A stretch of 64,000 nucleotides of DNA, from NCBI GenBank assembly GCA_044892525.1, contig CM097885.1, positions 81,654,001 to 81,718,000 on the forward strand, written 5' to 3'. Both the position numbers and the translations under genes were made by a program. The notes under the pieces are model-generated. The model was not told the origin of the DNA. It made no database searches and saw only the letters and a program-made list of their open reading frames with translations. This stretch comes from Schmidtea polychroa. Taxonomy: Eukaryota. This document shows, one piece after another, positions 35,454 through 58,104 of the stretch (position 1 is the first letter of the stretch; each line of letters starts with the position of its first letter).

Positions 35454-36218
35454 ATGAATACCTCAGCCAGTTCCGGGAAAACCCTCAGACCTTGCTTTTC
35501 CTGTGCTGATAAAAATGCCGATATCGCACAGCTCCACTTGTACATCGGGGAATTGAAGAAGAGAATTGACCTCTATGAGGGAACGTGGTTCTCCCCACCA
35601 CAAATGAAGGAGGAGAAGAGCAAGATTCTGCGTTTGGAGCACTGCCGTGACAGTCTCCTGGAAGAAAGCAGGTGCCAGAGGCTAACCATAAAGGCCCAAT
35701 CAGAGGCACTGCACAAGGTGTATTCCGAATCAGAACTAGCGAAGCGAGTTCGCGAGTACCCGATACAAGATGGGACTAACGTGTTCCCAATACACCACAA
35801 ATTAGCTGAAACCTCATCAATATCCAGTTGTAAAGGGCATGGCCCACAAATGCCGCCAATTCCCGCCCCAGTTCTTTCGGGCGATCGACCTATTGCTGGC
35901 GGTTCATCGGACCCTATCTTGGCTCCAGTACTCGTGCCACACCTCCTTCAGTCCCCAGCAGAAGCTGCACTCCCCCATCGAAAGCGTAAGCGGCTGACGC
36001 GTTCTGAAAAAAATCAGAAGCGTAGAAATGCCATGGCCGCGCTCGAAGCATCGTTATCTGTGGCCAAAGCAACTATCAAGGAAATTACAGTTACCCATTC
36101 CATTCCTACAAAGGAAGTATTCCGGGTAGTTCCGGCCGGCAGTATCAAATTCCTCGAAGATCGCCGGTTGCCCGTTGACATCGACGAGATGCTCGCAGAA
36201 GGAGGAGCATTCTCGTAG
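35454..36218 (+). CDS. LTR-encoded 254-aa protein of unknown function (CxxC, coiled coil, Pro-rich, basic NLS-like)
   Basis: ATG-initiated, GC-richer than its flanks; PCFSC, RKRKRLTRSEKNQKRR; acceptor-like CTTAACGATTTAG directly before the ATG. Confidence 0.7.
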   Translation: MNTSASSGKTLRPCFSCADKNADIAQLHLYIGELKKRIDLYEGTWFSPPQMKEEKSKILRLEHCRDSLLEESRCQRLTIKAQSEALHKVYSESELAKRVREYPIQDGTNVFPIHHKLAETSSISSCKGHGPQMPPIPAPVLSGDRPIAGGSSDPILAPVLVPHLLQSPAEAALPHRKRKRLTRSEKNQKRRNAMAALEASLSVAKATIKEITVTHSIPTKEVFRVVPAGSIKFLEDRRLPVDIDEMLAEGGAFS

Positions 36219-36760
36219 CCAATTCTCTCTCGGGTCTCGATTCCCCTGCTATTACGAACGAACTTGAAGAAGCGACGTTATCTCGTGACTAATCCTTAAT
36301 GTTTTGCACTTGTTTAAACAATGCTGAATGTAATTTGATGTTCCGTTCTAATATAACTGTTCGATTTTCTTTGATTGTGTAAATTGTATGTATGATTTGC
36401 TACGGTTGAATTGCATGAGAGAAGGATCACGAAAATATAGTAGAAACTTAAATGTCGTACCTTTTGGACCAGGGTCGGACCGAATGATGCGTAAAGAATG
36501 GGTAAGACCTTCTATGGCACCGTAGAACCCGAACCGAGAAAGGGTTAGGAGTAGTCCTAAGGCAGGGGCTCACCTGCTAACTCTTTCCAACCCGTGTGAG
36601 CAGTACCAACGTGGAACATCACCACGGGCTCATATGTGGGAATATGCGAATGATCATTTGGAGTGCGTGAGGGAAGGATCTGAGTAGAATAATGACACCT
36701 GATGTGTATGATAATCATGCCTATATATTTTCTTTCCCCCACATACGCCAACATGATTTT

Positions 36761-36778
36761 TGGGGGCTCAGCCGGGAT
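36761..36778 (+). promoter_or_regulatory. Primer-binding site, tRNA-Pro type
   Basis: TGGGGGCTCAGCCGGGAT matches the canonical tRNA-Pro PBS TGGGGGCTCGTCCGGGAT at 16/18; it lies 7 nt after the LTR end. Confidence 0.88.
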
Positions 36779-37230
36779 GAATTCGATTTGTTGATTACCC
36801 ATTATTGTGTTATGATGTGTTAGATTAACAATTTAATTAATTATGATTAAAAATGGAATCGGGACTGAAACGAATCGATATCGTAATACAATAGAATGAT
36901 GATACGAACTGAAAATAGAGCATGTATGAATAAAGATGAACCTAAATGAGTATGAATGTATATGATAGAGTATGATGAGAGAAGGAAACGGGAATTAGTT
37001 ACTTTGTTTAATTTTAATTTATTAAATTAAAAAGGGGAGACAAAAGAAAGTAATGACAATAAAATTAAAAGATTAAAGTCAAAAATACGACGGGGATTGT
37101 TAAAAAGACTAAATAAAATACGAAAGCTAGAAACAATAACAAATAAAAGAGAAACGAATATTAAATACAACGTAATAATATTATTGCTAATACTAGTAAG
37201 AACAAATAATAACAACACATTCATTTAGAT

Positions 37231-37710
37231 ATGTCAGACGCTAGACAACATCTACAACAGCTAAGCCGGTTCGTCGAAATAGAAAATGATTCAATAAAAA
37301 CATTAAGGGAAAAACTGAAACAAATAGAACTGCTAGAACAACAAAGCCACAACGCACCGCTGATATCCAAACAAAACTTTCTAACCGACAGATTAGGATC
37401 AACAAATACCGATACCGACTTGTCGATTCATTACCAATGGTTTCAGCAACGTCTCGACGACCCAGCGCTGAACATCGAATATGTGAGGATACGCGAACGA
37501 GTCAAAACTCTGTCTCAGCGGATACGAACATCAATAGTAGAGAAAGCAGCGGCCTTGAGAACTTGTAACATTTGCAAGATGCGACCTGTCAAAATTCTGA
37601 TTCTACCTTGTGGGCACCTTAGCCATTGTGACGAATGCGCCGCCAGTTTAATCCGGTGTTCTATGTGCACATGTGTAATAAAAGAGAAGCACACAATCTA
37701 CTTCAGTTAG
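37231..37710 (+). CDS. Coiled-coil protein with C-terminal IAP-type C3HC4 RING (putative E3 ligase), 159 aa
   Basis: CNICKMRPVKILILPCGHLSHCDECAASLIRCSMCTCVIKEKHTIYFS at the extreme C-terminus; no BIR visible. Confidence 0.85.
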   Translation: MSDARQHLQQLSRFVEIENDSIKTLREKLKQIELLEQQSHNAPLISKQNFLTDRLGSTNTDTDLSIHYQWFQQRLDDPALNIEYVRIRERVKTLSQRIRTSIVEKAAALRTCNICKMRPVKILILPCGHLSHCDECAASLIRCSMCTCVIKEKHTIYFS

Positions 37711-38292
37711 GTACGTGATCGTCGCTCGGTGAGAGAAATTGGATGGTGGAACAATTAAACTAAAATATTTTAATTTTTTTTGATTTGATTCATTAATATT
37801 TTAATAATGGTATCATATATCATATGTAGCATGGACTGAATAATCAATAAATCATTTTTGTGTGTTTATTTCATTTTGCGAAGCTATAATTTGATCTGTT
37901 GTATCATAATTTTCACCATGAAGAAAGGGTATTTTAAAATTTAAATCGAGTACATAAAGTGGAGCTAGTCCCAACATAAGATTAAAGGGGGAATAAACCG
38001 AGCCACCTTCGGGAGGTACGATAATTGAAAAACCGTTCGGGAGGGGATAACCGATCACCCCGAGTAAGAGATGTAAGGCGAGGTACCATCGCGAATATTG
38101 AAAAGTTTCTGCGGTATGGCTGATCACCATACCAATGCAGAAATGGATCAATGCGATCGTTTTGCGTTTTAAGCAAGGGGGGAAAGGGGAAACCTTCCAA
38201 AGCGGTACAGATTAAGTCGACAAATAAAAGTAAAAATAGGAAGATGACAGTATAGAATAAAGACAAAAAGGAACGGAAGCATGCAGAGTTTA

Positions 38293-38812
38293 GAGATATT
38301 AAGGCCGAGCTGTTGAAAAGTCCAGCCGGTCAGGAAAAATTAAAACTGAGCTGTGAAAAGTCCAGCCAGTCGGAGATATTAAGGCCGAGCTGTTGAAAAG
38401 TCCAGCCGGTCAGGAAAAATTAAAACTGAGCTGTGAAAAGTCCAGCCAGTCGGAGATATTAAGGCCGAGCTGTTGAAAAGTCCAGCCGGTCAGGAAAAAT
38501 TAAAACTGAGCTGTGAAAAGTCCAGCCAGTCGGAGATATTAAGGCCGAGCTGTTGAAAAGTCCAGCCGGTCAGGAAAAATTAAAACTGAGCTGTGAAAAG
38601 TCCAGCCAGTCGGAGATATTAAGGCCGAGCTGTTGAAAAGTCCAGCCGGTCAGGAAAAATTAAAACTGAGCTGTGAAAAGTCCAGCCAGTTCGGAGATGA
38701 AGAAGATTGAGCTGTTGAATAGTGCCAGCCAGTCGTAAGATCGAGTTGTTGAATAGTCCAACCGGTCAGGAGAAGAAGATTGAGCTGTTGAAAAGTGCCA
38801 GCCAGTCGTAAA
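38293..38812. repeat. Tandem array: 5 perfect 80-bp units (each a dimer of ~40-bp subunits) plus degenerate subunits
   Basis: Units start at 38293, 38373, 38453, 38533 and 38613; shared core GAGCTGT(T)GAAAAGTCCAGCC(G/A)GTC. Confidence 0.95.
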
Positions 38813-39475
38813 GGCCTAAAGTAATAGTGAGATAGCATTCAAGCTACAAGTTGATAACATTTAAATTACTAGTGAGATGGAATATTAAAGCTAGCTAGAA
38901 GCAAAGTGAGTTTGAAATATGGTATTTGAATTTAGAAAGGATTAAACGAGCTCGTGAGAAGTAATAATGAAATTTTTTTCAGTGGGAAAGAGAAACGGAA
39001 AAGGAAAATGAATTAAAGAGATAATGAAAATAAAGAATAAGTGATGAGTAAAAGAGGAAGGTGATTAATTAATTAAAAAAGGGATCCCAGACAAGTAGAC
39101 AAAGTTCTACAGAATTTTTTTTGGTTTAAACCGGTTAAACGAATTTTGTTTTGGTTACAGAGTAGAACCAAATAAGGGGAAACAGAGATGAAAGATTAAG
39201 TAAAATAGCGGAACCGCGTAAAAGGATTAAGAAAATATGGGGGGTAATAAGCAGTAACTGACAACGACCTATCGATATTATAAATGCTAACTATAGATAA
39301 TTTATACGACTATATAGATAATTGTTACCACCCCAAATAGATAATTTAAAATCGACGAAAAATATGGGTTGATGGGAAATTATATTCCGCGAAGAAGCGT
39401 ATGAGGGGAAATGAAGAGAAGTATAACAGAGGCCCTAAAACGGTGTCTGTGCTTGAATGTGGCAAAAAGGAATGA

Positions 39476-42400
39476 TTGATTCGTGTAAGCAAAGGCAACA
39501 CGATATCATATTTTCATTGTAGACATCCATCCAACCAAGTCAATTCAGAACCAGCTCAAGAGGAATCCAGAGAATATACAAACAACCCAGGAAAAGCAAT
39601 TCAGAACCCGCACAAAGGAAGACAATATCAAAACCGAACTCGACCAATTCAGCAGACGCTAACCGTAGAAAATCCACGTGAAAAGACAGAAAAGAGTAAA
39701 AGGAAAATCACGGATAAACCCAACCTTAGATCTTCAAGTAAGCCAGGAGACGTATTATTTTCAGGAGACGAATTAGATCAACTCAAAAGAGGACGATCAT
39801 TTAGGCAGCAGAGAGGAATATCACAAGGAGCAAAAAGACCCCACAAAACACCGATATACGATCAAGAAAACCCCACAGCCGGACATACGCCCAGCCGATC
39901 TAGAAGTAGAGAAAGTCTATCCGATATAACCAACAACCTAACCGGGTCAACAGAAGAATTATCCGTCCATAGCTTAGCTACATCGCTGGAAAATTTAAAA
40001 GAAATAATAGAGTTTCAAGAACCAATTAAGATGAATGTGGTAAAAACTGACGAGTATAAGGAAAAATTTAGAGGCGAACCATTCAACGGGAATGCGAACA
40101 AGTTGGCAACGTTCATAACCAACTTTGAAGTCTATATCGATGTGTGTGGATGGACACCCGAAGCAATTAGTAAACGAATGCCTCTGTTTTTGTGCGATAG
40201 CGCACTCGAAGTATATCTGGAAGCAAAAGAAAGAAATACGAAATTAGACAATTGGGAAAACATCAAAACATTTTTGAGAAAAACATTCGGAGCCAGCAAA
40301 CCAATAAATCAAGCGTTAGGTGAACTGGCAAGTAGAAAACAAAGAGCAAACGAGTCAATTACGTTATACGCAAGTGAATTGCGAAGATTGGCAAAGAAGG
40401 CCATGAACGGAAACTTGCCGGAGGAAAATTTAATTGGTTACTTCATAGAAGGACTACGCCGAGAAGAGGTAAGGGCCTCGGTGGGATGTCAAATGTGTAA
40501 AACACTAGAAGAAGCCATAGATTGGGCCACAAGATGCGAACTACACCTCCCAGCACAAATGAACGTCATGCAAGAGGAGGGAAGAATCGCAACAGCAACG
40601 GTGAAAACGGAAAATGGGGATAACAATAATCATGAACCCAAGATGAATCAGTTTATACCAGGAGCACATCAAATTTTCAAACCACCACAAGGACGATCAA
40701 ACGGGAATAACAGTGAACGCAACAACTCGAACAATGGGAACAACTTTAATAATCGACGAAATATGAACGATAACAAACAATGCCGAACATGCGGTAAACC
40801 AGGACATTGGGATAGAGATTGTTACCGAAACGCAAATTGCAATAGGTGTGGACGACGAGGACACACGGAAAATATATGCCAATCGAGAGGATGTTTTAAC
40901 TGCGGGCAACCAGGTCATATCTCAAGAGACTGTCGAGAAAGGAGCCAACAGCAACGACCACCACAGCGAAATAATAACTATGCACCAAATCCGCAACGAC
41001 AAAGTAATCCTAGTGAGGGAAAGCAAATGAATGTGATGCAAGAAATTTCACAAATGAAGCAGATGATGCAACAAATGATGAGACCGAGACAAGAGCAAGT
41101 ACCACAACCAACCCAGAATATACGCATGATGAGAAGCACCGAGAATCTTAACAATTATGAAGTGCAACAACATGCACAAGAATGGCAAAGACTACAAGCT
41201 GAAGAAGAAAGGATAAAAAGAGAGCGAATTCAGCAGCGACAAGAACAACCACTACGAATAAATATGATGAGGATGGTAAAGGAGATAAAGGAGCAATATT
41301 GTTACAATTACGGTAAAAATCCAAGAGTTGTACCTATGAGCGAACCAGAGAAACCGAAAGAAACAATTACAGCAGCAAAAAAGGAAAATTCAACAACACC
41401 ACTAAAAGGAAATCAGAGAATTCAGAAAATATTTTGGAAAAAGATAAAAGATAAAATCGAAAGAGAAAATGAGCAAACAAAAACAGAAGCAGAAGCAGAA
41501 AATAACGAAAATGAAAAACAGATTAATCATCTAAAGCATAATATGATACGAGAATTAGACTCAGAGGAGCTAACGATACTCGAGAACAACAAGTTAAAGA
41601 AAGTACCAAGAATGAGAAATTTACGAATTAATATGATGAGGACAACAAAGAAGGTGTTGTCAACAGATGACGATGAGGATTATGTGAGTAGCCTTGGTGG
41701 AGAAATGTTACAGTTAAATGAAAATATCGACCAACTAAGAGAAAAGATCGGAGCAGAGGAAGATGAAAGAGAAAGCGACGTGACAAGCGAAAGCGAAGAC
41801 GAGAATATCGAAATGAAATTGAGAAAAGAAAGAGAAGAAGCGATAAAACAAGTAAAGGAAATACTTCCAGTAGTGGTAAGAAACCAGGAATTCATTGACT
41901 TCATACCATACCGACGCTTCATACAAAAGATAATGAAACTAGAAAGAAACGAAAAAGACCTAATACCAAACGAGGAAAAAGCGATAATAAAGAAGTATAT
42001 GGAAAAAATGAAACAAGCGGAGACAACACGCTATGTAATAAAAATCGGAACGAGTAAAGGACTCGAGAGAATATGGATAAAAAATGCAGTCACAGACGAG
42101 CTTTTTGATTGGATAAGAGAACATTTGGGCAGCTCGAGAAAGAAAGAATACCTGTATCAATATCAAGGAGAACAAATCAAACCAGACATGCACCTAATAG
42201 ATGCATTGATCTGGCCAGGAGAAACTCAAATATTGAAATTGTATAAAGAGAAACAACCAGCAAATATTCACGAATGGGCTAAAGACGCCAAGGCCGAATA
42301 CGATTTTAACATCAAGCTGAAGCTGGAACAAATAAAACAATGCACCTTGCGACGAAATCTAGATAAATTAATCAAACAAATTCAAGAACAAGTCGAAGAT

Positions 42401-45400
42401 AACTGGGATTTACTCATAGCAAGACGAACTCCAGACATGCATGAGCTAATGAGCCGATTACGAGATACAGAATTGCTCAGGATGAGCGATTGGAGAACCA
42501 TAAATTTGATCCACAAATATGGCAGGTTGAAAGAAACGCAACCGCAGAAATTAGAAATAACCATATGGTTACCAAACGAGGAGAAACGACGAATAAAGAT
42601 GAGTAATCAGAGTACGGTAGATGACTTAGTAACCAAGATAAACCAAGAGATAACGGAAAAAGTACGAAGCGAGAGTAGCGACGGGATGATAGATGACGTA
42701 GTCATGATGTACGATAAAATAATATTACGGGCCGAAGACGACACCTCGCTAAGCGAAATGGGAATGTGGGATAATCATCAAATCATCAGAATATTGCCCA
42801 TGGACGAATTCCGAACAAGAGATATAACATACCAGAAAGAAATACGAGACAGGATGAAAACGCTATATCAAAAATCAGTAGAAATAATTGAAATTCATCA
42901 ACAGTGGTTAAAAGAAAAAGAGCTTCAAGGAAAAATAAAGAAACTAAGTGTGAGATCCTGCAGACGAACCCCATGGGAAAGGACGTGGAATGCGGAAAAC
43001 AAAGAATGGAAAATCAGGAAAGGGATTTTCGTGGAAACAGACATTGGTGAGATAGAAAGTGAATCAGAAGAAGAGGAAGATGAACCTCCAAAATACGAAG
43101 AGGACGAAATAGAATCGACATCGGACGACGGAAGCGAAACGGATGTTACATCAGAAAGTGAAACGGAAACCAGACATATTCATGCGATGAAAAAGAAAGA
43201 ACGCGAATATGCCGATATGGATAGCGAAGAAGCGATGGAAGCTCGAGAACGAGAAGAGAAGGAAAGATATAAACAATTAGGTGATATCTTAGCAACGGGA
43301 ACAAAAAATCAAAAACGTCAAGTAATAGCATTGGCTAACATCATCCTAAAGACATCAGAGAATATCCACAATCTAAGAGAAATGGCGAAAGCGATTGAGG
43401 AATACAGACAATATAACGAATGGTACCCAGAACAGCTAGAACAAATTATTAGGAAATGGAGAAACCAAGAATGGGCACAAGATACCCAGGAAAGGTATCG
43501 TATCCGAGTCAAGTATCCCGACAAAAGCATTGAGGATACAGAAGTACATCCAACAACAAAGATCAGAGAGTTAAAAAAGAAATTAGCATACGAAACTCCG
43601 TTTCACCTACAACTATTCGGAAAATCGTTGGATGATAATGCAGATGTCGGAATAACACCCATGAGATTGGGGGAGATCAATGTATTGACAATGGCAGAAA
43701 CATTGGGAAAACCGATTAAAAGGAAGAACAAATCCAGTAAACCTACGAAAGGTAGCTTGAGTACACCAAGCCCTAACAAAGTGGCAAGTAAAACGAATGA
43801 AACCGAGGAAATCGAGGAAATTATATTGGAAGACAGCGATGAAGGAGCTGGAGAAAGATCACCAATTCTGGTAAGATGGCCGACAGGAGCCGAAATATGG
43901 ACAACAAGCCAACCGTCAACTAGCTATCAGCAGCCAAATAAGCTGAGTATCGAGGAGATTATCGATAATACAACAGAAACCGAAACCGACGAACAATTCC
44001 AACGACAGAAAGGACCAACGAAAGCAACACCAGAAGGTCAAACGGACAAAATAATAGACGAATGGAACGAATGGCTAAGAAATAACGATAGCTCATTGCC
44101 AAGAACGGATAACGAGAGAAACCCGAATTATGAAAATACAAGGGAAGCCGGAACAATGATGGAAAAACGGGCAAAAGGGAGACCCAAGAAGCAAGGAGAA
44201 AAACCGGAATTTAAAACTAGAGAACAACTGAAACAAGAACAAGGACAAGTCAGATTAGAGAAACTGGATAAAATAGTGTGGGATCTAAAAGAGGCCCAGC
44301 CAACTATCGAAAGAGGCGAAAAATGGATACGAGAGCTAGTAAAAGATATGCTAATAATAACGAACCCACAATTGCGACGGTTATGGCAACGAAAAGTAGC
44401 AAGCGTAGACGCCAGACAACTATGGAATACAATATCCGGAATAATTCCGAAATTAATCAAAGAGAAGACAAAAACCACTAAAACCGATTGGGAAGAGACA
44501 AGAAGAGTAATTGAACAATTAACTTTAAACGCAAACGACGACGAACATCATTTAGTAGTATTAACGTATCTAATGTACAATTTGATGGGATTAGCAGCAA
44601 GGAAAATACCTAACAAACAATTCGCAAATCATGTAGAAATGACCGTCACAATCATTGAAAATACAATCGAACCACATATCATCCGCGCCGGTGGGTGGAA
44701 AAGACTCATACAAGCGCCACGAAAAAACGAGCAAGAGAGATCAATGCAAATTCGGTTGAAGAAGTTACTACATGAGCTAGAATGGGAATTGCCATTGAAA
44801 GACCCAGCCAGCAGAAAAGCGTCGATTAATTCACTAATGATGACCATGATGATATGGATGCTCTGCACCAGTGGAGCCGCGGGATTTACTATTTACGACT
44901 GTGACAATTCGATAATAGGAGAAAGATACTCCCTGAGAGATATAGAGGAATGTAGACAGGCGTCTCCGAATAAATTAGATATAGTAAAGAAGAAAGTCTC
45001 CTATCACGTATACCAAGAATCAGATTTCATTAGAACGCAAGCTAGAGAATGCGTAGTATCAAAGAAAGTGTTGGCATATTACTGTGGACAATACTCATAT
45101 TCAACCCTTATATTACCGGGATTAGATAAAGAAATAGTACCTATACAACGGGAAGACTGTAAAGAGCTTTTTAGAACCGGAGCAATGAGAATCAGGGATG
45201 GAGTAACAATACACGGACAAAGCGGAATGATCAAGACAGAAAGTATCTATGTCGCTGGACGAGTAAAATCAACTGATGGATCATGTAACGGAGGCACATA
45301 TACGATCCGAGGAGAGGTGATATCGGGAGTAGTAGTAATTGAGTCCTACACAGTGGAGTTGAAGGAATACGAAGCACAATTCGACGCGAACAACTATCAA

Positions 45401-48400
45401 ATGAAAACCAACCCAGCATGCAGAGCTACGGAAAACGTGTGTAGAACGGGAATTTCGACTATAATATATGAAGCTAACACCCAAAAATGCCGACTCCAAT
45501 TGTTAAAAAGTGCTCTATTCAATGAAGTAAAAGGAGAAATTTACGAAAACGAGGATGACGATGAAGAGAATGGAAACGTAAGGATGCGAAATGGGAAACC
45601 AGTTCCGCCATCCCCCAAAGAAAAGAGACTCACAACCCAAAAAACACCAACGGCATTAATTACAGATGACCCAGATATCGGCATGAGATTCATTAGAGAA
45701 AAAGAGACCACCAAATGTGACAGCATAGTATACCGGACGAACTACGCAGGTATCTACATGTCCAGGCAAGTAATAGACCGAGCAGTGGGAAAGGTAGCAA
45801 CAGAGGACGTAAAATTGTACCTGTACGCCAATAACAAAATGGACTTTTTATTTCACCGAGGACAAACGACAATGCAAAAAGTGTATTACGATCTTATACA
45901 AAATGACTGTTCATTGAATAAAGAGATACTAAAAACAAAATTAGCCATCGCAATAACACACCCAGATAACACAATGCCATCACTCCCGTTACCGGATGGA
46001 CATTTTGGTAGAATGGTGGGAGAGGTAATGTATACATATGCATGTACCAAGACATTTGCGCGACTGCCAAGAAAGCCCACAATTCCACCAGGGAAATGTG
46101 CAAACGAGTTAGAAATTAGTTACAAAGGGCGAAACAGATTCGTTCAACCCGTCACTCGAATAATGAACCCAATTGGATTTTACCCGAACACCTTTAACTG
46201 TTCAAATGCATACGGACCGTTATATGAAAAACCCGATGGGAAATGGATAATGTTACCGGTAAAAACCGAAGTACAAGAACCTAAAAAGTTTGGACTAATA
46301 GAACTCGCAACAGAACAAGATTTCAAACCAATTGATGTGTCAAAAGCAGGTATGTACTCACCGGAGGATTTAGAAACGGCACGATTAAACGTATTATTCC
46401 CAGCAAGACGGGAATCCATTCTATCGAATATGGTTACCATAACTGGGGGAACGAATTTCCAGTCAGGCCCCAATTACGAACTATTATTGTCACCTGATCA
46501 TTTTCAACAAGCCACGTCAAACATGATGAAAGCAATGTGGGGAAGATTTCTAGTGTTCGGTCAAATGATGGCAGGAATATTGGGAATCATCTTAATTATT
46601 CAGATCGTCAGAGTAATATTAACTCAAATGTTAGCGTGTTTTGATATCTATAAGAGAGAAAAGAAGGTAAATTGGAAATTAATAGTAGGCTTTCTACCAT
46701 TTTTGGCGAAAACAATGGTGTTGCACGGTCATTCTAAAGACATACACAGAATAAAACGATTGATCAAAATACTGACAAAAATAAAAGGAACTGACGAGGA
46801 AGTCGGTAGACGATTTCGGAAAACGATGTATGATGAAGCAACAAGGACGCAACTGAAAAAGAACAAACCAAAATTCTTAGACAGATTTAGGAATCGATCA
46901 AACAGCAGCGATAGTGATGATGACGACAACGGGAATGACAAATACCCATATCCAAGTAGAAACCCGAATGAAAAGCCAATAGAAACAGCACCATATTGGG
47001 AGAAAGAAAAAACAAATACCTGGATAGCCAACGGAAGTTACATACCACCAGATATCGTTGGACAACAAACAGCTTTGACCATGACACAAAATATGTATCC
47101 ACAGTTACCAAGTCAACCAGGAATGAACTATATGCCGACCCGAAGAACGAAAAGTGTAGACCAAGCGGACGACGTAAGAACGATAGCAGTGATGAGTTCA
47201 CCAGGAGGTGCGGCAGTAACAGTCATGATCCAAATCAACGGGAAAGAGACAAGCGCCATGATAGATACCGGAGCAAACGTATCAGCAATAGCAATAAACC
47301 AAATACCCAGTAAATGTTGGAAGGATATCGAACAAACAACTATCCATATTATTGCATGCAGTAAAGAAACCGTAGACGTAGTAGGAAGATGGTGGACTAC
47401 GTTACGATATCAGGATAACGAAATTGAAACGTATCTAGCGGTGATACCCAAACTGAGTGAACCATGTATAATCGGAACGGATTTAATGCCGGAATTATTT
47501 AAGGAAGTAGTAATCGATTTAACAACAATGTGTCTAAAAGACAAAATGGGTAGAATATGCAAGATGAACGCAATAATTAGATGTCCGGAGAAAATAATTG
47601 TACCCGCAAAATCACAGATGATATGTCAAATAAAAGTGGATGCAGGAATGGAAGGAGAAGTCATTTTTGAGCCAAGCAAATCATTCGAAAAACGACGAGA
47701 ATTACCATTAGCAAGAGAAATAATAACAATAAATGAAGACGGGGAAATACCAATTAACATCACAAATTTCGAGGAAGAAGACAAGATCATATATGAAAAT
47801 GAAAGATTGGGTAGATTGACACCCATGATAGACATCGAATTACCAAAAATCACCAACGAAACAACGAAAGCGGACGAATTATGGATAATTGATAGCACCT
47901 TGCTAACGGAAAAAGAAAAGGAGAGACTTCAACAATTATTGATAGAATATAAAGATATATTCGCAATTTCGGATTTAGATTTGGGAGCATGCGATGTTAC
48001 ATTACACGCAATACCATTAATAGACGAAACTCCAATCGCACTACGCCCATACAAACTAGCAGAGAAGCAAAAAGAGATAGCCGAAGCCGAAGTACAAAAA
48101 ATGCTAGATGCACAAGTGATCGAACCAAGTTGTTCGCCATGGCAATTTCCAGTAGTCATGGTGAAGAAAAAAGACGGTACTCAGAGATTCTGTATCGATT
48201 ATCGGAAATTAAATGCAGTAACAAAAAGAGACACATACCCGTTACCAGACATCAATGAGATGTTACTTATGTTACAGGGGGCCGCATATTTTACATCTTT
48301 AGATCTGAAAAGCGGATATTGGCAGATCAAAGTCAAGGAGGAAGACAAAGAGAAAACAGCATTCACATTGGGCCGAGATCTATACCAATTCAGGAAAATG

Positions 48401-51400
48401 CCGTTCGGACTGACCAATGCCCCAGCATCATTCCAGAGATGTATGAATTTTGTCACACACGGGATCAAGCAGTGTATGGTATATATTGATGATTTATTAA
48501 TATATTCAGCAACATTCGAACAACATTTGGAAGATATCAGAAATGTGTTCGTTCGATTACGACAATGGAAACTGAAACTTAAACCATCCAAATGTGATTG
48601 GGCAAAAGAAAAAGTTACGTTCTTAGGACACATAGTGTCAGCAAAAGGCAAAGAACCAGATCCAAGAAACCTAGAAAAAATAAAAACATGTCCAGCACCA
48701 AAAACTGTCACCCAAGTTCAAGAATTTCTCGGATTATGCGGATATTATCGAAAATTCATCAAAAACTATGCAGGTATTGCGAAACCAATACAGGAATTAG
48801 TGAAAAAGGATATTTCATTTATTTGGGGTGCAGAACAACAAAAAGCGTTTGAGACATTGCGAGATAAATTAATTGAAGCCCCAATACTAGTACATCCTGA
48901 TTTCAAGAAACCGTTCCTATTAGCAACAGATGCAAGTGGATATGCAGCCGGAGCAATATTAGGACAACTGGATGAAGAAGGAAAAGAAAGAGTAATTGGA
49001 TACTACAGTAGAACGTTTAAAAAGCACGAGAAAAACTATTCCGTAACCGAGAGAGAAGCGTTAGCAATCATACAAGCAATTAAACATTTTCGATATTTGT
49101 TATGGGGACACGAAATATGTATCACCACGGATCATCAACCATTAGTATGGCTTGGTCAACACAAAGAAGCTTCAAGTAGATTGATGCGATGGGCAATGCA
49201 GTTACAAGAATATTCACCGTTCATAAAATTCAAAGCGGGAAGAGCGAATGCCAATGCGGATTGTATGTCCAGATTTATCTTTCCAGATTTAGTAGATCAC
49301 GAAATGCAACGAATATGTCTGATGGTAGCAGAAGATTTAGATTTTTGCCAATTACGGAAAGACCAACAAGAGGATACAGAGTTGAAGCAAATCATTGAAT
49401 ATGTGAAAACAGGGAAAGCAGAGGTATATGAGAAAGATCAAAAATTGAAGGAGCACATGGATAAACAACGACATCGATATATTATCGAGAAAGATTGGTT
49501 ATTGATAATGGATGGCGAGAAAAGACTGATGTGCATTCCCGAGAATAGACGTAAAGATCTACTAACACAATACCATGACGGAAGACTCGGAGGACATATG
49601 TCATCTAAAAAGACGTTGGCACGAATGAAACAAAAATATTTTTGGCCTACATTGACCGAGGATGTAACGGAATGGGTGAAAAATTGCATAACTTGCGCAA
49701 CCAGAAAAAACACGGGAACAAAATGGAAGGCACCATTAAAGCCAATGCCAGTGCCAGCAGAACCGATGACAATGATATCAATGGACGTAGTCGGTCCACT
49801 ACCAGAATCAGATAGAGGAAATATATATATATTAGTAATCACAGATTATTTGACAAAATTCCCCGAAGCATTCGCAATGGCAGATCAGAAAGCAAGAACA
49901 ATCGCAAAAATATTAGTAGAGGAAATATGTTGTCGATATGGAACGCCGAAACAAATACTGACGGATCAAGGAACGAATTTCATGAGCGAAATAATGAGCG
50001 AAGTCACCAACTACTTCAAGATCGCAAAATTAAGAACATCACCGTACCATCCACAAACTAATGGTATGACAGAAAGATTCAATGGAACACTGATTCAAAT
50101 GTTATCAAATTATGTCGATCGTCATCAACGAGACTGGGATGAATATATAAAATTATGCCTCATGGCTTACAGAATGTCGATTCACGCGTCCACAAAGATG
50201 AGTCCGTTCAAGTTGATGTACGGCAGAGAATGCAATATGCCAATGGATTTAGAATATCAGCCACCGATATCACAGTACATGGAAATAGACGATTATGTAA
50301 CCAAGTTCAAGGAAAGAATGCAGGAAATCTGGGAAACCGCAGGATTGAATATAAAATTTTATCAAGAAAGTTACAAAGAGTTACATGATAGAAAGAAAAA
50401 CGTCAAACAGCATACGTTTCAAACAGGCGATTGGGTGATGATTGAAACACCAGAATTAATTCCAGGAACCACCAAAAAATTACAACGAAACGGTAAAGGG
50501 CCGTATGAGATTCTATTCGTCGGAGAAACTAATGTAAGAGTACGATTAGTGAACAACCCTTTTACAAGGCCAATATATGTAAATGTTGCACGATGTAAGC
50601 CAATTCCGAAAACCGCCACCAGTCAGCCAGAAGGACGTACACTAACGACAAGATCACAAACGTATAGAATAAACATGTTACAGCAAATAAACGAACCAAC
50701 AGGTAATCGATTAGGGTTACAACCATCAGAAGCCGAGAAAATCATAAGGGAAGTAAAAGTTAAAATGCCCGGATGGGCAGAAGACAGATTAGATTTTGAG
50801 ATATTGGGAGGTCTGCTAACAATGATCGAAAATTATGCAAACCGAGAAAGAACACACCCATTGCTCAGGGTAGTTAAAAGTCAATGGCCTATATTATTCA
50901 CGATCACAGACCACTACGGAGACACACCCCTGCACAAGCTTTTAAAGGTGGGTAGTAACGAACAGATATTAGAAACAATTGAAGCATTTCGCGATTGTAA
51001 CATTTCGACAGATCAAGAAAACAACCAAGGTTACACTCCACTAATGATAGCAGCCAATCGGGATAAAGCTAAAGATATTATCATCGCATTACTCGAAACT
51101 GGGTCAAAGATAACCACACAAGATCACAACCAGAAAAATGCATTACATCATGCAATCGAAGGGAAAAGTACGGAAGCCTTCATAATCTTAGTAGATCTAA
51201 TATCATACGAGGATAATAGAGAAATAGGAAACATGTATGACGGGCTATTAACTGCAATCAAAGAGAAACTAACAACAATTACTGGAATACTAATTGCATG
51301 GAGGAACCCGATAAAAAACGACTATATGGTAGATATAAACGAAACATTTACCAAAGGAGAAAACACCTTGATGAGAGAAGCGATGAGAGGACATCACCTA

Positions 51401-53911
51401 TTCGAAATTCCAAATCAACTACTACAACGTGACATAAAATTCTCAAATCACAAAGACGAACAACTAATCAGAAAACGAATTACCAACTTCGAAAAAGCTA
51501 TATCTCAATTTACCGATAAAGTACAAGTAAAATTTTGGGACACCGTGAGTGTTTTACATATGATGGAAACTATGAACAACATTCGAGAAAACTACCTAAG
51601 TATTATTCAAGTTCTAACGGCAGAGGAACGCATTAACAGTTCGAACAAGAAAAAGATAAAAATGAAGAAAGTAAAAGCAAGAGAGTCTGAGGAACAAGTC
51701 GATCAACCAATAACCGACATAGCAACAACAAGTAAACCAAAGATAATAAACTCCGACCAAGAGATAGTAGTACGTAAGGCTAAAGAAGTATTCTTTGAAG
51801 AAATGCAAGATCTATCCGATGAAGCGATACTGGCAAAAATAACCAAAACAGTACACACCTACGCAAGAGATCAGACCACAAATCTAGACATAGGAAAAAT
51901 AAAAACATTTATACCACTAGCATTCACCTTACCAACAAAAGACTCAAGAACACCATTACAACAAGCCATTTTAGCAGCAAAAGAAAACAGAGCAATAACC
52001 ATCATAAGAATCCTTAGAGACTTCGGAGAAGAATCTAATGCAAAAAATGAACAAGGGGAAACAGCAATGATGTATGCAGCCATAACAAATATACACCCAA
52101 AAACATTACATATACTACATCAATCAGGTTCGAGACTTGACGAAATATCAAACGAAGGAAATTCCACCATGGATTGGGCAACAATACAACCAAACTTGGA
52201 AATGATTAGATTCATTTGTAAAAATGCTACAAGAACTGAGGTAGAAAATATCTGTAAAAACACGTCACAGTTCCAATGGAACACGATACGGATGAACTTA
52301 GAAGCCATGAAGTTGCTGCTAACATGGAGAATACCACAAAGCAATAAATATGCAATAAATATAAATGAGTTCTACGAAAACGGAGAAAATGCTATGGTTA
52401 AAAATACACTAACGAAAGGAGGAACTCCGAAAATCATAATGATCGTATTAAACAGGGAAGATCTCAAATTCACGCAGAATCTACACGAACAAAAGCGAAT
52501 CGGGAAACATCGTCGGATACAATTAAGAGAATTAGTGAAAGAATGGAATAGAAAGAGACATGTAGCAACAGGCAGAAAGGAGTTCGAACCCGAAGCAAAA
52601 TTAGCAAGAAACAGAGTGCTAACGGCATACCGCAGATTGTTGAATGAGATAAATGTCGAGGACGACATTTTAAACGATAGAGGGGGAGATAAAGACGATA
52701 AAGACGATAAAGACGACGATAATAATGAAAAAGGTCGAAACGGGAATAAAGAGAAAGAGAAATCAGAGGAGAATAATCAAGAAAATAACGACGCGAGCAG
52801 GAAAAAAGAGGAAAATAACCCGAGAAACCGAAGGAAGCAAGAAGAAAAGACGAATAGTGGAAAACAGAGGGTATGCCTACTTTTTACCAACAAAGAAATG
52901 GAGACAAATATGATGATAATGATACTCGTACTAACAATGGTGGAAATGATAACAGCCCAGGGAGGAATGAGAACGATAAAAGAAGCCAAAGAAACGGAAA
53001 ACAAGGACAACAAAGAGGAAGAACTAAAACAAGAAAAGAAAAAACAAGTACAAGAGCAGCAATGGGATCTAAAAGAAGAATGGGATTTAAAAGAAAGGTG
53101 TATATTAGGAAGATGTATGTCTAGAGCTTATCAGAGACTAGTGTTAAAAAATGAAGATGCAGAACCAATAACGGAAGTAAGAATACAAGAAGCATACCGA
53201 AATCGAGAAGGGAAGAGAATAACGAAAGTCAAAGGGAAGGAGGTACACCTGGGAAAAGGAGGTGAGGTAGTGATAACGCAACTCCAGCCAAGAAAAGAAC
53301 ACAAAGTCTGCATCGCAAGATTAAGACCGGGTGAAGACTGTCTACAATATGTAATACAGCAACAACCTCCAAAAGAATACACAATATGCATCTGGAGAAA
53401 AGATACAGCGAGAGAATGTCGACGATACCCTGGGAAAAGAGGGAAGAAAAGAAAAATCGATGATGAAAAAGATGAGCAAGGAAAACGCAAGAAAAACAGT
53501 GAGAAACATCAAGACAATTATGTATCCGAGGAGGAGATGGAGAAAATACAAAAAATGGCAAAGGAAGGTATGAACGAGGAAATAGCAAGAATACGAGGAA
53601 TGATGAAAGGAAATGGCAAAGACGGTAATCTAAAAAGCACAGAAACAATATCAACAATAACGAGCAAGGAAAAAGCGGAAATTATAAGCATAAAACAGAT
53701 GATGTGGATCAGCGGCATAATAATAACAGGGGCCTTTTTAATCATAACGGGGGGGACAATAAAAATAATCAAAGATAGACGGCATCACGGAGAACTAGAA
53801 ATGGCCAGAATAAGAAATTTTCAACATCGTGTAAAACGACCAAGTAATATCAAGCAGGAACAGTGGGTGGAGGCCTGGAATGCTCAGCGCCCTCCAAGCT
53901 CACGTATATAG
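39476..53911 (+). CDS. gag-env-pol: 4,811-codon Gag-accessory-Env-Pol-ankyrin-membrane polyprotein (first in-frame ATG at 40031; 39476 is TTG)
   Basis: Stop-free frame with CCHC knuckles, DTG protease, YIDD RT, RNase H, HHCC+DDE integrase and the extra domains listed separately. Confidence 0.95.
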   Translation: MIRVSKGNTISYFHCRHPSNQVNSEPAQEESREYTNNPGKAIQNPHKGRQYQNRTRPIQQTLTVENPREKTEKSKRKITDKPNLRSSSKPGDVLFSGDELDQLKRGRSFRQQRGISQGAKRPHKTPIYDQENPTAGHTPSRSRSRESLSDITNNLTGSTEELSVHSLATSLENLKEIIEFQEPIKMNVVKTDEYKEKFRGEPFNGNANKLATFITNFEVYIDVCGWTPEAISKRMPLFLCDSALEVYLEAKERNTKLDNWENIKTFLRKTFGASKPINQALGELASRKQRANESITLYASELRRLAKKAMNGNLPEENLIGYFIEGLRREEVRASVGCQMCKTLEEAIDWATRCELHLPAQMNVMQEEGRIATATVKTENGDNNNHEPKMNQFIPGAHQIFKPPQGRSNGNNSERNNSNNGNNFNNRRNMNDNKQCRTCGKPGHWDRDCYRNANCNRCGRRGHTENICQSRGCFNCGQPGHISRDCRERSQQQRPPQRNNNYAPNPQRQSNPSEGKQMNVMQEISQMKQMMQQMMRPRQEQVPQPTQNIRMMRSTENLNNYEVQQHAQEWQRLQAEEERIKRERIQQRQEQPLRINMMRMVKEIKEQYCYNYGKNPRVVPMSEPEKPKETITAAKKENSTTPLKGNQRIQKIFWKKIKDKIERENEQTKTEAEAENNENEKQINHLKHNMIRELDSEELTILENNKLKKVPRMRNLRINMMRTTKKVLSTDDDEDYVSSLGGEMLQLNENIDQLREKIGAEEDERESDVTSESEDENIEMKLRKEREEAIKQVKEILPVVVRNQEFIDFIPYRRFIQKIMKLERNEKDLIPNEEKAIIKKYMEKMKQAETTRYVIKIGTSKGLERIWIKNAVTDELFDWIREHLGSSRKKEYLYQYQGEQIKPDMHLIDALIWPGETQILKLYKEKQPANIHEWAKDAKAEYDFNIKLKLEQIKQCTLRRNLDKLIKQIQEQVEDNWDLLIARRTPDMHELMSRLRDTELLRMSDWRTINLIHKYGRLKETQPQKLEITIWLPNEEKRRIKMSNQSTVDDLVTKINQEITEKVRSESSDGMIDDVVMMYDKIILRAEDDTSLSEMGMWDNHQIIRILPMDEFRTRDITYQKEIRDRMKTLYQKSVEIIEIHQQWLKEKELQGKIKKLSVRSCRRTPWERTWNAENKEWKIRKGIFVETDIGEIESESEEEEDEPPKYEEDEIESTSDDGSETDVTSESETETRHIHAMKKKEREYADMDSEEAMEAREREEKERYKQLGDILATGTKNQKRQVIALANIILKTSENIHNLREMAKAIEEYRQYNEWYPEQLEQIIRKWRNQEWAQDTQERYRIRVKYPDKSIEDTEVHPTTKIRELKKKLAYETPFHLQLFGKSLDDNADVGITPMRLGEINVLTMAETLGKPIKRKNKSSKPTKGSLSTPSPNKVASKTNETEEIEEIILEDSDEGAGERSPILVRWPTGAEIWTTSQPSTSYQQPNKLSIEEIIDNTTETETDEQFQRQKGPTKATPEGQTDKIIDEWNEWLRNNDSSLPRTDNERNPNYENTREAGTMMEKRAKGRPKKQGEKPEFKTREQLKQEQGQVRLEKLDKIVWDLKEAQPTIERGEKWIRELVKDMLIITNPQLRRLWQRKVASVDARQLWNTISGIIPKLIKEKTKTTKTDWEETRRVIEQLTLNANDDEHHLVVLTYLMYNLMGLAARKIPNKQFANHVEMTVTIIENTIEPHIIRAGGWKRLIQAPRKNEQERSMQIRLKKLLHELEWELPLKDPASRKASINSLMMTMMIWMLCTSGAAGFTIYDCDNSIIGERYSLRDIEECRQASPNKLDIVKKKVSYHVYQESDFIRTQARECVVSKKVLAYYCGQYSYSTLILPGLDKEIVPIQREDCKELFRTGAMRIRDGVTIHGQSGMIKTESIYVAGRVKSTDGSCNGGTYTIRGEVISGVVVIESYTVELKEYEAQFDANNYQMKTNPACRATENVCRTGISTIIYEANTQKCRLQLLKSALFNEVKGEIYENEDDDEENGNVRMRNGKPVPPSPKEKRLTTQKTPTALITDDPDIGMRFIREKETTKCDSIVYRTNYAGIYMSRQVIDRAVGKVATEDVKLYLYANNKMDFLFHRGQTTMQKVYYDLIQNDCSLNKEILKTKLAIAITHPDNTMPSLPLPDGHFGRMVGEVMYTYACTKTFARLPRKPTIPPGKCANELEISYKGRNRFVQPVTRIMNPIGFYPNTFNCSNAYGPLYEKPDGKWIMLPVKTEVQEPKKFGLIELATEQDFKPIDVSKAGMYSPEDLETARLNVLFPARRESILSNMVTITGGTNFQSGPNYELLLSPDHFQQATSNMMKAMWGRFLVFGQMMAGILGIILIIQIVRVILTQMLACFDIYKREKKVNWKLIVGFLPFLAKTMVLHGHSKDIHRIKRLIKILTKIKGTDEEVGRRFRKTMYDEATRTQLKKNKPKFLDRFRNRSNSSDSDDDDNGNDKYPYPSRNPNEKPIETAPYWEKEKTNTWIANGSYIPPDIVGQQTALTMTQNMYPQLPSQPGMNYMPTRRTKSVDQADDVRTIAVMSSPGGAAVTVMIQINGKETSAMIDTGANVSAIAINQIPSKCWKDIEQTTIHIIACSKETVDVVGRWWTTLRYQDNEIETYLAVIPKLSEPCIIGTDLMPELFKEVVIDLTTMCLKDKMGRICKMNAIIRCPEKIIVPAKSQMICQIKVDAGMEGEVIFEPSKSFEKRRELPLAREIITINEDGEIPINITNFEEEDKIIYENERLGRLTPMIDIELPKITNETTKADELWIIDSTLLTEKEKERLQQLLIEYKDIFAISDLDLGACDVTLHAIPLIDETPIALRPYKLAEKQKEIAEAEVQKMLDAQVIEPSCSPWQFPVVMVKKKDGTQRFCIDYRKLNAVTKRDTYPLPDINEMLLMLQGAAYFTSLDLKSGYWQIKVKEEDKEKTAFTLGRDLYQFRKMPFGLTNAPASFQRCMNFVTHGIKQCMVYIDDLLIYSATFEQHLEDIRNVFVRLRQWKLKLKPSKCDWAKEKVTFLGHIVSAKGKEPDPRNLEKIKTCPAPKTVTQVQEFLGLCGYYRKFIKNYAGIAKPIQELVKKDISFIWGAEQQKAFETLRDKLIEAPILVHPDFKKPFLLATDASGYAAGAILGQLDEEGKERVIGYYSRTFKKHEKNYSVTEREALAIIQAIKHFRYLLWGHEICITTDHQPLVWLGQHKEASSRLMRWAMQLQEYSPFIKFKAGRANANADCMSRFIFPDLVDHEMQRICLMVAEDLDFCQLRKDQQEDTELKQIIEYVKTGKAEVYEKDQKLKEHMDKQRHRYIIEKDWLLIMDGEKRLMCIPENRRKDLLTQYHDGRLGGHMSSKKTLARMKQKYFWPTLTEDVTEWVKNCITCATRKNTGTKWKAPLKPMPVPAEPMTMISMDVVGPLPESDRGNIYILVITDYLTKFPEAFAMADQKARTIAKILVEEICCRYGTPKQILTDQGTNFMSEIMSEVTNYFKIAKLRTSPYHPQTNGMTERFNGTLIQMLSNYVDRHQRDWDEYIKLCLMAYRMSIHASTKMSPFKLMYGRECNMPMDLEYQPPISQYMEIDDYVTKFKERMQEIWETAGLNIKFYQESYKELHDRKKNVKQHTFQTGDWVMIETPELIPGTTKKLQRNGKGPYEILFVGETNVRVRLVNNPFTRPIYVNVARCKPIPKTATSQPEGRTLTTRSQTYRINMLQQINEPTGNRLGLQPSEAEKIIREVKVKMPGWAEDRLDFEILGGLLTMIENYANRERTHPLLRVVKSQWPILFTITDHYGDTPLHKLLKVGSNEQILETIEAFRDCNISTDQENNQGYTPLMIAANRDKAKDIIIALLETGSKITTQDHNQKNALHHAIEGKSTEAFIILVDLISYEDNREIGNMYDGLLTAIKEKLTTITGILIAWRNPIKNDYMVDINETFTKGENTLMREAMRGHHLFEIPNQLLQRDIKFSNHKDEQLIRKRITNFEKAISQFTDKVQVKFWDTVSVLHMMETMNNIRENYLSIIQVLTAEERINSSNKKKIKMKKVKARESEEQVDQPITDIATTSKPKIINSDQEIVVRKAKEVFFEEMQDLSDEAILAKITKTVHTYARDQTTNLDIGKIKTFIPLAFTLPTKDSRTPLQQAILAAKENRAITIIRILRDFGEESNAKNEQGETAMMYAAITNIHPKTLHILHQSGSRLDEISNEGNSTMDWATIQPNLEMIRFICKNATRTEVENICKNTSQFQWNTIRMNLEAMKLLLTWRIPQSNKYAININEFYENGENAMVKNTLTKGGTPKIIMIVLNREDLKFTQNLHEQKRIGKHRRIQLRELVKEWNRKRHVATGRKEFEPEAKLARNRVLTAYRRLLNEINVEDDILNDRGGDKDDKDDKDDDNNEKGRNGNKEKEKSEENNQENNDASRKKEENNPRNRRKQEEKTNSGKQRVCLLFTNKEMETNMMIMILVLTMVEMITAQGGMRTIKEAKETENKDNKEEELKQEKKKQVQEQQWDLKEEWDLKERCILGRCMSRAYQRLVLKNEDAEPITEVRIQEAYRNREGKRITKVKGKEVHLGKGGEVVITQLQPRKEHKVCIARLRPGEDCLQYVIQQQPPKEYTICIWRKDTARECRRYPGKRGKKRKIDDEKDEQGKRKKNSEKHQDNYVSEEEMEKIQKMAKEGMNEEIARIRGMMKGNGKDGNLKSTETISTITSKEKAEIISIKQMMWISGIIITGAFLIITGGTIKIIKDRRHHGELEMARIRNFQHRVKRPSNIKQEQWVEAWNAQRPPSSRI
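40031..40933 (+). other. gag: Polyprotein domain: Gag capsid-like region plus three CCHC zinc knuckles
   Basis: EPFNGNANKLATFITNFE...FIEGLRREEV; CRTCGKPGHWDRDC, CNRCGRRGHTENIC, CFNCGQPGHISRDC (40781-40933). Confidence 0.92.
42032..43695 (+). other. Polyprotein domains: three ubiquitin-like (beta-grasp) modules and a partial CARD-like segment
   Basis: UBL-like segments at about 42032-42250, 42548-42800 (STVDDLVTKI...EDDTSLSEMG) and 43495-43695 (TTKIRELKKKL...LQLFGKSLDD); CARD-like segment at 42347-42523. Confidence 0.55.
44260..44715 (+). other. Polyprotein domain: Bcl-2-like fold
   Basis: TRRVIEQL...HLVVLTYL...TIIENTIEPHIIRAGGWKRL aligns by eye in spacing with Bcl-xL FEQVVNEL...RIVAFFSF...TYLNDHLEPWIQENGGWDTF; the NWGR motif is absent. 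Confidence 0.7.
44821..46740 (+). other. env: Polyprotein domain: envelope glycoprotein, chuvirus-G / class III-like (signal peptide, Cys-rich ectodomain, TM)
   Basis: Signal SLMMTMMIWMLCTSGAAG, mature start FTIYDC...YSL..IEEC at 44885, many Cys, TM WGRFLVFGQMMAGILGIILIIQIVRVIL at about 46540-46622. Confidence 0.78.
47190..47530 (+). other. Polyprotein domain: retropepsin aspartic protease
   Basis: AMIDTGANVS (DTG at 47264-47272) and IIGTDL; followed by a dUTPase-like beta segment without clear catalytic motifs (about 47575-47830). Confidence 0.92.
47950..49270 (+). other. Polyprotein domains: reverse transcriptase and RNase H
   Basis: SPWQFPVV, RFCIDYRKLN, LDLKSGYWQI, MPFGLTNAP, YIDD (48482-48493); TDASGYAAGAIL, YSVTEREALA, TDHQPL. 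Confidence 0.97.
49550..50620 (+). other. Polyprotein domain: integrase (HHCC, DDE, GPY/F)
   Basis: YHD..GGH...CITC; SMDVVGP; TDQG; NGMTERFNG; GKGPYEI. Confidence 0.96.
50906..52410 (+). other. Polyprotein domains: two ankyrin-repeat clusters
   Basis: YGDTPLH, QGYTPLMIAA, KNALHHAI (about 50906-51390); SRTPLQQAI, QGETAMMYAA, EGNSTMDWA (about 51935-52410). Confidence 0.85.
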
Positions 53912-54079
53912 AAAGGATTATGACTGTATATAGATTGTAAAAAGTAAGTAGGAATTATTTATTTATATAACAGTATTCTATATTTTTATATAAGCGCGGT
54001 ATCAATAGTATATAATGATGGGGATAATTAATATGAAAATAAAATTAGATAAGGATTGAAAAGTATATATAAATTAAGA

Positions 54080-54439
54080 ATGGAGCGAATAGGCGAGGAA
54101 GTAAACCACAGTACAACAACCGAGGAGATGTGGAAACAACAATGTGCAATGTTAACTCAAGTGATTTCGAATTTACAAGAACAAGGACTCGCTGTACAAA
54201 GAAGCTTAGTCGAAAGTTTAAATAAAGGCTTCAATTATGTAAGAATAATCGAAGACCAACGAATGAAAATAGAACAAATGCAGCGAGAGATAGACCGAAT
54301 ATCACGATACAGCCAGGTGCAAGAAGAGGAGTTAATAAGAATCGCGGAAGAGATGGAGCGAGAGGAGATAGAAGACTGGTCAGAATGGTTAACCAACAGG
54401 GAAGAGGGCGGACAAGAGGCCGACTCTTCCAGCCAATAA
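54080..54439 (+). CDS. Accessory coiled-coil ORF (~119 aa from ATG 54080), function unknown
   Basis: Glu/Gln/Arg-rich helical sequence with the element's A-rich codon style; the listed start at 54056 is TTG. Confidence 0.55.
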   Translation: MERIGEEVNHSTTTEEMWKQQCAMLTQVISNLQEQGLAVQRSLVESLNKGFNYVRIIEDQRMKIEQMQREIDRISRYSQVQEEELIRIAEEMEREEIEDWSEWLTNREEGGQEADSSSQ

Positions 54440-54528
54440 ATATAACCTAAAATAGCAATGTAAATAAATGTAAATAAAAATACGAAACTGTACCGGTAAC
54501 GAATATATGTATATATATAATTATAGAA

Positions 54529-55917: not shown

Positions 55918-56135
55918 GGAGACGAATAATTTTGTATATACTAATTGTAAATATCGGCGTATATATCCAGTAAAATATTATATAGTAGTGTAGAAAATTC
56001 CCCCAAATCTACCAAAGGTAAACTTAAGCGAAAAATTCCTAAAACAACTCCTATAACGAATTATAAAAATAAATAAATAATAAACCAGATATAAGCGTAC
56101 AACGTTAAGTTAATGATATCGTTATTTAGACAAGG

Positions 56136-58049: not shown

Positions 58050-58104
58050 TTAAAGATGAATGATCAATGTAAATAATTGTAAATAAAAATTTTCGTATAG
58101 TAGT

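Follow-up and report, generated by a model that had tools for sequence, protein, structure and literature searches.

A predicted class III envelope domain inside the Gag-Pol polyprotein of a young Burro-type Gypsy element of Schmidtea polychroa

We analysed a stretch of 64,000 nucleotides of Schmidtea polychroa (assembly GCA_044892525.1, contig CM097885.1, positions 81,654,001 to 81,718,000), hereafter the window, which contains a Ty3/Gypsy long terminal repeat (LTR) retroelement of the Burro type. The main open reading frame (ORF) of this element carries, in frame and upstream of Pol, an envelope (Env) domain, and the element thus has the order called GAG-ENV-POL. We consider it probable, from the sequence and a structure model, that this domain is a class III fusogen of a young element, likely serving to bud through membranes and fuse with them during the element's own replication, and that Env is old in this lineage and was passed down among such elements, not newly captured by the window element. 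The first-pass annotation had described 44821..46740 as a chuvirus-like glycoprotein captured by a Gypsy element. The domain was borne out, but it is not a gene by itself: the env region comprises residues 1787 to about 2420 of a 4,811-aa ORF, between a Bcl-2-like stretch and the protease, and its embedding in a Gag-Pol polyprotein had been missed. The region lacks start and stop codons proper to it, and a stand-alone env ORF was rejected. The features on which the argument rests are as follows.

39476..53911, + strand: ORF of 4,811 aa, stop to stop, in the order Gag, ubiquitin-like (Ubl) region, Bcl-2-like, Env, protease (PR), reverse transcriptase (RT), RNase H, integrase (IN), ankyrin repeats, second membrane protein
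44834..44884, + strand: internal signal peptide of Env, predicted from conservation
44885..46534, + strand: class III ectodomain, similar to chuvirus glycoprotein (G) and herpesvirus glycoprotein B (gB), 550 aa with 14 conserved Cys and a single NCS sequon
46535..46651, + strand: membrane-proximal and transmembrane segment, hydropathy maximum 2.53
46667..46723, + strand: second, weaker hydrophobic segment, hydropathy maximum 1.41, shared with relatives and with the G proteins of two named chuviruses

The sequence patterns claimed by the first-pass annotation (F-x-x-YDC...SL...C, a Cys-rich ectodomain of about 550 aa, an NCS sequon and W..F..FG..(M/S)AG..GI..I) were all found. The F-T-I-YDC motif lies at 44885 and is immediately followed by YSLRDIEEC, the only sequon of the ectodomain is the NCS at 46196-46204, and the membrane-proximal segment W..F..FG..MAG..GI..I (WGRFLVFGQMMAGILGIILI) starts at 46538. 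In an alignment of 126 sequences, each of the 14 Cys was conserved in at least 112 of the 121 aligned homologues with a residue at that position, and 10 were conserved in all. All 12 relatives that were examined have a hydrophobic stretch ahead of (Y/F)DC; that of the window itself (44834-44884) fell below the 19-residue hydropathy threshold of 1.4. No furin-type R-x-K/R-R site was found in the ectodomain. GQYSY (45086-45100) is a candidate fusion loop, judging by its place between the model strands 49-68 and 74-78; the second expected loop is polar.

The Env domain matched the Pfam family PF24664 (Monjiviricetes_fusion) with 250.7 bits against a cut-off of 27 (E 2.8e-74). A HMMER search of 1.84 billion representatives yielded 976 proteins at E <= 0.001. 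The top matches, 29-47% identical, were Envs of other such elements, followed by stand-alone proteins of about 650 aa with 22-29% identity. When the 14 best-scoring long matches were scanned, PF24664 was present in all 14, with a retroviral protease in the same ORF in 10 and RT as well in five. The best named viral relative by sequence was Tacheng tick virus 4 (E 4e-34). Looking up 30 of the 150 listed matches gave two clusters named as chuvirus glycoproteins (Tacheng tick virus 4; Chuviridae sp./Yichun mivirus) and two insect genomic proteins; the remainder were unnamed or 'hypothetical', apart from one with a bacterial metagenome-bin label that nevertheless has the domains of a Gypsy polyprotein. 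P0006, a Gypsy Env-Pol polyprotein of the same type filed under a Flavobacteriaceae metagenome bin as a hypothetical protein, likely comes from animal DNA in that bin. Word-index homology searches with the single protein and with an alignment returned no match, whereas the full HMMER search found homologues, and phmmer against PDB sequences gave chance matches only.

The AlphaFold2 model of the ectodomain (pLDDT 90.6, pTM 0.70) has a long helix at 312-359. The top match of this model in BFVD was a chu-like virus G (E 6e-37, TM-score up to 0.69), followed by xinmo-, nyami- and rhabdo-like G proteins. Among solved structures, herpesvirus gB filled 35 of 35 listed rows in Foldseek (best E 1.6e-13, TM-score 0.41) and 50 of 50 in VIA (Z 10.8, root-mean-square deviation 7.0 A over 400 residues). 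The families listed by ESM Atlas were all of class III, which is weak evidence owing to its low recognition value. The first-pass annotation had named cellular or non-fusogenic best matches as the result that would speak against a chuvirus-like class III glycoprotein; chu-like G and gB came out on top, and no cellular protein was among the listed structure-match rows. With a PF24664 score above the cut-off, a gB/G-like fold (long central helix, beta-rich fusion domain), conserved Cys, a predicted signal and a C-terminal transmembrane segment, the Env domain has the marks of class III and is predicted to be a fusogen most like the chuvirus-type G.

The element family is young, multi-copy and dispersed. 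The two LTRs of the window element differ at one of 4,186 bases. In a genome search for env, 78 of 2,767 candidates were scored, and all 78 were 99-100% identical over the whole ectodomain; a stop inside env was present in three, 38 lay within open frames of at least 4,700 aa (counted by hand), and many had shorter open frames. Starting instead from the 40 best integrase matches, a near-identical env was found at the expected distance in 38; at one exception the contig ends before env, and the other copy is without the 5' part of env. Within single copies (loci L052-L081, L084-L093), the degree of divergence from the window element shifts abruptly from region to region; L061, for example, differs at 11 positions in env but nowhere in PR-RT, a pattern suggestive of recombination among copies. 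Two pairs of env lie 26.4 kb apart (C1 72655755/72682148; C2 107337484/107363896), a spacing equal to one LTR plus the internal region, and are likely tandem elements sharing an LTR.

Selection on Env was estimated from distinct codon variants counted against the window. An initial count of 122 silent and 0 amino-acid-changing variants was set aside because the copies had been ranked by Env protein identity and were thereby biased. In ten copies drawn from the lower-ranking integrase matches (set 1), the env ectodomain showed 73 silent and 3 changing variants, with a ratio of nonsynonymous to synonymous polymorphism (pN/pS) of 0.011, and the transmembrane segment showed 17 and 0. The corresponding values were 51 and 8 (0.041) for RT-RNase H, 44 and 5 (0.027) for integrase, 29 and 6 (0.056) for the Gag capsid and 28 and 4 (0.039) for the Bcl-2-like stretch, whereas the spacers and the Ubl region of the same ORF reached pN/pS 0.14-0.23. 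A second set was chosen on DNA downstream of env and comprised 29 of 30 loci (one was dropped as unaligned, and one is the window itself); it gave 62 silent and 4 changing variants in the env ectodomain (pN/pS 0.018). All env variants common to at least two copies were silent in both sets (51 and 45). The two sets partly overlap, and the counts are not tree-based. If selection acted only to preserve an open frame for Pol, stops and frameshifts alone would be removed; the purging of missense variants therefore means that the replicating element requires the folded Env domain, and the element likely depends on Env for its own spread. No within-family selection test was met in the literature searched or in the parts of PMC13524379 covered, a scope that leaves the 2026 Burro1 study and its supplements outside. 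Among the 15 of 29 joints listed from four runs (about 2-10% divergent from the window copy, three of them only presumed to be RNA), none led into env, a result uninformative on splicing or expression.

Membrane-protein biogenesis and the polyproteins of flaviviruses and alphaviruses offer models of how such an ORF could work. The polyprotein would be made on the endoplasmic reticulum (ER), where the internal signal at 44834-44884 would initiate translocation. Signal peptidase would then release the N-terminus of Env at F1804. The ectodomain would fold in the lumen with disulfides and form a trimer like that of gB. The transmembrane segment at 46535-46651 would stop transfer and leave PR-RT-IN in the cytosol, tethered to the Env tail, and the weaker segment at 46667-46723 would stay on the cytosolic face. 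The Gag precursor would be membrane-anchored via the signal remnant until the element's protease cut it off, and the same protease would cut Pol off the Env tail. Capsid, envelope and enzymes would come together at one membrane without a frameshift or splicing, and a second signal-like stretch and transmembrane segment at the ORF end would yield another surface protein. By analogy, we infer the topology, processing, trimer, fusion and cell-to-cell spread of this scheme. A short hydrophobic-N/C/H/R-hydrophobic motif occurs at 16 sites in 39965-52871, several of them at domain borders and one just before the Env signal, and these may be candidate cleavage sites of the element's own protease; its count exceeded that of 500 of 500 shuffles, a statistic that is not evidence because the pattern was drawn from the same sequence.

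Taken to its full extent, the scheme would describe a currently replicating enveloped retrovirus of planarians on a flavivirus-like plan, in which host signal peptidase and the element's protease process one ER-threaded polyprotein. The products would be Gag anchored in the membrane, a fusogen of class III, Pol tethered to Env and a further surface protein for attachment, and the element would spread between cells, for example into stem cells or the germ line. We put this forward tentatively, as a possibility that may well prove to go too far. If it is true, an infection step would have left its genomic signature in the young copies, namely the almost complete lack of amino-acid changes in their Env.

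The first-pass annotation had taken the domain for an independent capture from an RNA virus. A chuvirus G taken up separately, by the window's Gypsy lineage alone, would agree with the nearest named viral relatives being chuviruses, both by sequence and by predicted structure, and GAG-ENV-POL elements are not monophyletic in Pol (PMC13524379), so that several captures or rearrangements are possible for the group as a whole. However, in a FastTree phylogeny of 111 sequences (the window, one second-family copy from the same genome, 12 embedded Envs and 97 matches of 600-780 aa from ranks 21-150), the 14 polyprotein-embedded Envs formed one clade (Shimodaira-Hasegawa-like support 0.993) and were not nested among the named chuviruses. 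Beside this clade stood three unnamed stand-alone proteins, and the two named chuviruses were among the other 94. The tree omitted fragments and longer proteins, and because it was midpoint-rooted and most leaves are unnamed, neither the donor nor the direction of transfer can be read from it. Furthermore, a second env-bearing family in the same genome (L022-L051) carries a 37% identical Env at 30 of 30 loci, pairwise identities of env and RT co-vary (rho 0.72 for six elements, with pairs that are not independent), and the window Env is 22-29% identical to stand-alone G proteins versus 29-47% to the Envs of other such elements. Any capture would therefore be old and shared, and a separate one in the window lineage appears very unlikely. 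The second family is more decayed than that of the window, its longest open frames reaching about 3,300 aa.

The main rival to an old Env serving the element's spread concerns its task. Env might do an intracellular job only, either to anchor the polyprotein in the ER and set its orientation there, or to let the element bud into and out of membranes inside a single cell, with no movement between cells. The selection data do not separate this from infection: embedding couples the folding of Env to the supply of Pol, and misfolding variants could be purged without an infection step. In addition, two chuvirus G proteins have 3 and 5 N-glycan sites, the window Env only one. Yet a mere anchor would not need 550 residues as constrained as RT, with 3 changing against 73 silent variants and all 14 Cys kept, and we regard a purely intracellular role as unlikely. 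A host-domesticated or non-functional viral remnant, carried passively, would be in keeping with the stops inside env in three of the 78 scored copies and the shorter frames of many, and Burro1 is reported to benefit its host via another domain (PMC13465017, citing Lee et al. 2026). But the copies are dispersed, young and near-identical, the silent-only variation common to several of them must have arisen in replicating lineages, and pN/pS of about 0.01-0.02 in mobile copies largely refutes passive carriage, to which we attach hardly any probability.

Several points weigh against the favoured reading of an inherited class III fusogen used in the element's replication. The whole-chain TM-score to gB is modest (about 0.41), a Z of 10.8 is not decisive alone for a long, partly helical chain, and by sequence alone gB was reached at E 0.014 only. 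The env and RT trees of the six elements agree in part only, with the window element placed differently. The difference in constraint between env and RT-RNase H plus IN is not significant (Fisher p 0.065), and purifying selection shows that a folded domain matters in cis and does not by itself indicate membrane fusion. Finally, the second hydrophobic segment at 46667-46723 could span the membrane, which would make the protease luminal and break the simple topology.

The remaining features of the element are listed below.

32568..63156, + strand: complete Ty3/Gypsy LTR element of the Burro type, 30,589 bp, between the two copies of the 4-bp target site duplication CTTT (32564-32567, 63157-63160)
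32568..36753, + strand: 5' LTR, 4,186 bp, TG...CA ends
35454-36218: ORF of 254 aa in the 5' LTR, without a Pfam match
37213..37710, + strand: accessory ORF of the leader, encoding a RING finger (zf-C3HC4_3, E 3.2e-8)
40181..40936, + strand: Gag (Retrotrans_gag E 1.9e-10; CCHC knuckles E 2.1e-10, three by eye)
44546..44698, + strand: weak Bcl-2-like stretch (Pfam E 0.028-0.095, below cut-off)
47222..50053, + strand: Pol, with aspartic protease 47222-47497, RT 48161-48637, RNase H 48899-49213, and integrase zinc finger and core 49535-50053
50972..52117, + strand: two ankyrin-repeat blocks, 3' of integrase
52898..53908, + strand: predicted second membrane protein at the ORF end, with a signal-like stretch (52898) and a transmembrane segment (53681)
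54478..55917, + strand: accessory TRAF-like ORF, complete and separate, downstream of the polyprotein (RING, zf-TRAF, coiled coil, MATH E 2.5e-25)
58971..63156, + strand: 3' LTR, one mismatch to the 5' LTR

The PR-RT-RH-IN order, Ty3-type RT/RNase H, H2C2 integrase, TG..CA LTRs and short target site duplication place the element by sequence in Ty3/Gypsy (Metaviridae), and yeast Ty3 provides the solved structure nearest to its RT-RNase H (E 3.7e-94); the Gypsy setting of the first-pass annotation was thereby upheld. BEL/Pao membership was set aside as improbable: Ty3-type domains were matched, and the BEL-specific domains, which we take to be Peptidase_A17 and DUF1759, were not among the 18 Pfam families matched. 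A stretch at 36761-36778, seven bases past the 5' LTR, presumably resembles a tRNA-Pro primer-binding site and is a candidate only; on inspection, no clear polypurine tract was seen before the 3' LTR. Between the RING ORF and the polyprotein, the leader holds, at 38213-38811, an 80-bp tandem unit in about six copies and a repeat with 73-bp spacing. Ubiquitin matches in the Ubl region were below the Pfam cut-off, and the Bcl-2-like match recurred at the same place in the relative P0005 (E 0.00096). The second membrane protein (52898-53908) is predicted to be of type I, with an ectodomain of about 240 aa (fibronectin type III-like by eye) and a short tail after the transmembrane segment; it had no Pfam family above cut-off and no usable match in Atlas, and is a candidate attachment protein. 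Two coiled-coil-like ORFs (56130-57173, 57345-58049) lie 3' of the TRAF-like ORF. Directly before the 3' LTR, the ORF at 58087-58740 has, by eye, a signal-like N-terminus, a coiled-coil-like middle and a transmembrane-like segment; no Pfam family scored above cut-off, and it is perhaps a candidate third membrane protein.

An in-frame env with matches to mononegavirus glycoproteins was published in 2019 for the Burro elements of planarians (PMC6431247), and gB-type env is as widespread in Gypsy elements as F-type env (PMC13524379). The premise of the first-pass annotation that errantivirus env is only baculovirus-F-like is therefore outdated, and its sense of novelty arose because PMC10084718, in the portion considered, had found no clear Gypsy capture, a result since superseded. 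GAG-ENV-POL order is described in flatworms, nematodes and bryozoans, with six S. mediterranea elements listed, along with 114 arthropod Gypsy elements bearing a chuvirus-like glycoprotein, and the working of gB-type Envs in Gypsy elements is stated there to be unknown (PMC13524379). The young and abundant family in the window, in a likely tractable planarian host and with selection on Env as strong as on RT, would be a good place to ask whether a class III Env serves cell-to-cell spread.

Among viruses, Jingchuvirales G proteins share with the window Env the N-terminal (Y/F)DC after a signal, the Cys pattern, the W..F..(F/L)G motif, the second hydrophobic segment and the predicted fold (TM-score up to 0.69 to Wenling crustacean virus 14). 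They differ in their 22-29% identity and in being encoded by their own gene, whereas the window Env is internal to a retroelement polyprotein and has one sequon. The post-fusion form of herpesvirus gB is the best solved-structure match of the model, but it is only about 11% identical, and gB requires gH/gL and a receptor-binding protein (PMC13524379). The 'Anakin' elements of mosquitoes are likewise LTR elements with a chuvirus-like class III glycoprotein, but have a BEL/Pao Pol, another host and another gene order (PMC10084718, PMC13524379).

The closest likeness in layout is to Burro / GYPSM1 of Schmidtea mediterranea, which also exceeds 30 kb with LTRs and carries MATH/TRAF and RING cargo; its ORF1 of about 4,800 aa encodes Gag, three CCHC knuckles, a Ubl and a Bcl-2-like domain, Pol and ankyrin repeats, and env sits in frame between the Bcl-2-like domain and the protease (PMC6431247). 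MATH/TRAF occupies a separate downstream ORF in the window element, ORF1 in Burro1 and an upstream position in the Dugesia/Girardia tigrina element; BIR, which Pfam did not find in the window-element ORFs scanned, is counted as a difference from Burro; and the Burro env was linked by HHpred to the gypsy F-type Env (PMC6431247), whereas the window Env is predicted to have a class III fold. Smed_errantivirus_5 shares the Gypsy Pol and the gB-type Env before Pol, and its domain I-II is about 58% identical to the window Env (106 of 182 gap-free positions, by eye); it is listed as single-copy, in a gB-type group otherwise with multiple near-identical copies, versus at least 78 near-identical env copies in the window family (PMC13524379). 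At 42% divergence from the nearest element listed in PMC13524379, the window family is distinct. The capture and the gag-env-pol layout are thus already published, and the window element is a further family of a published group, to which this analysis adds the within-family selection result on Env among young copies.

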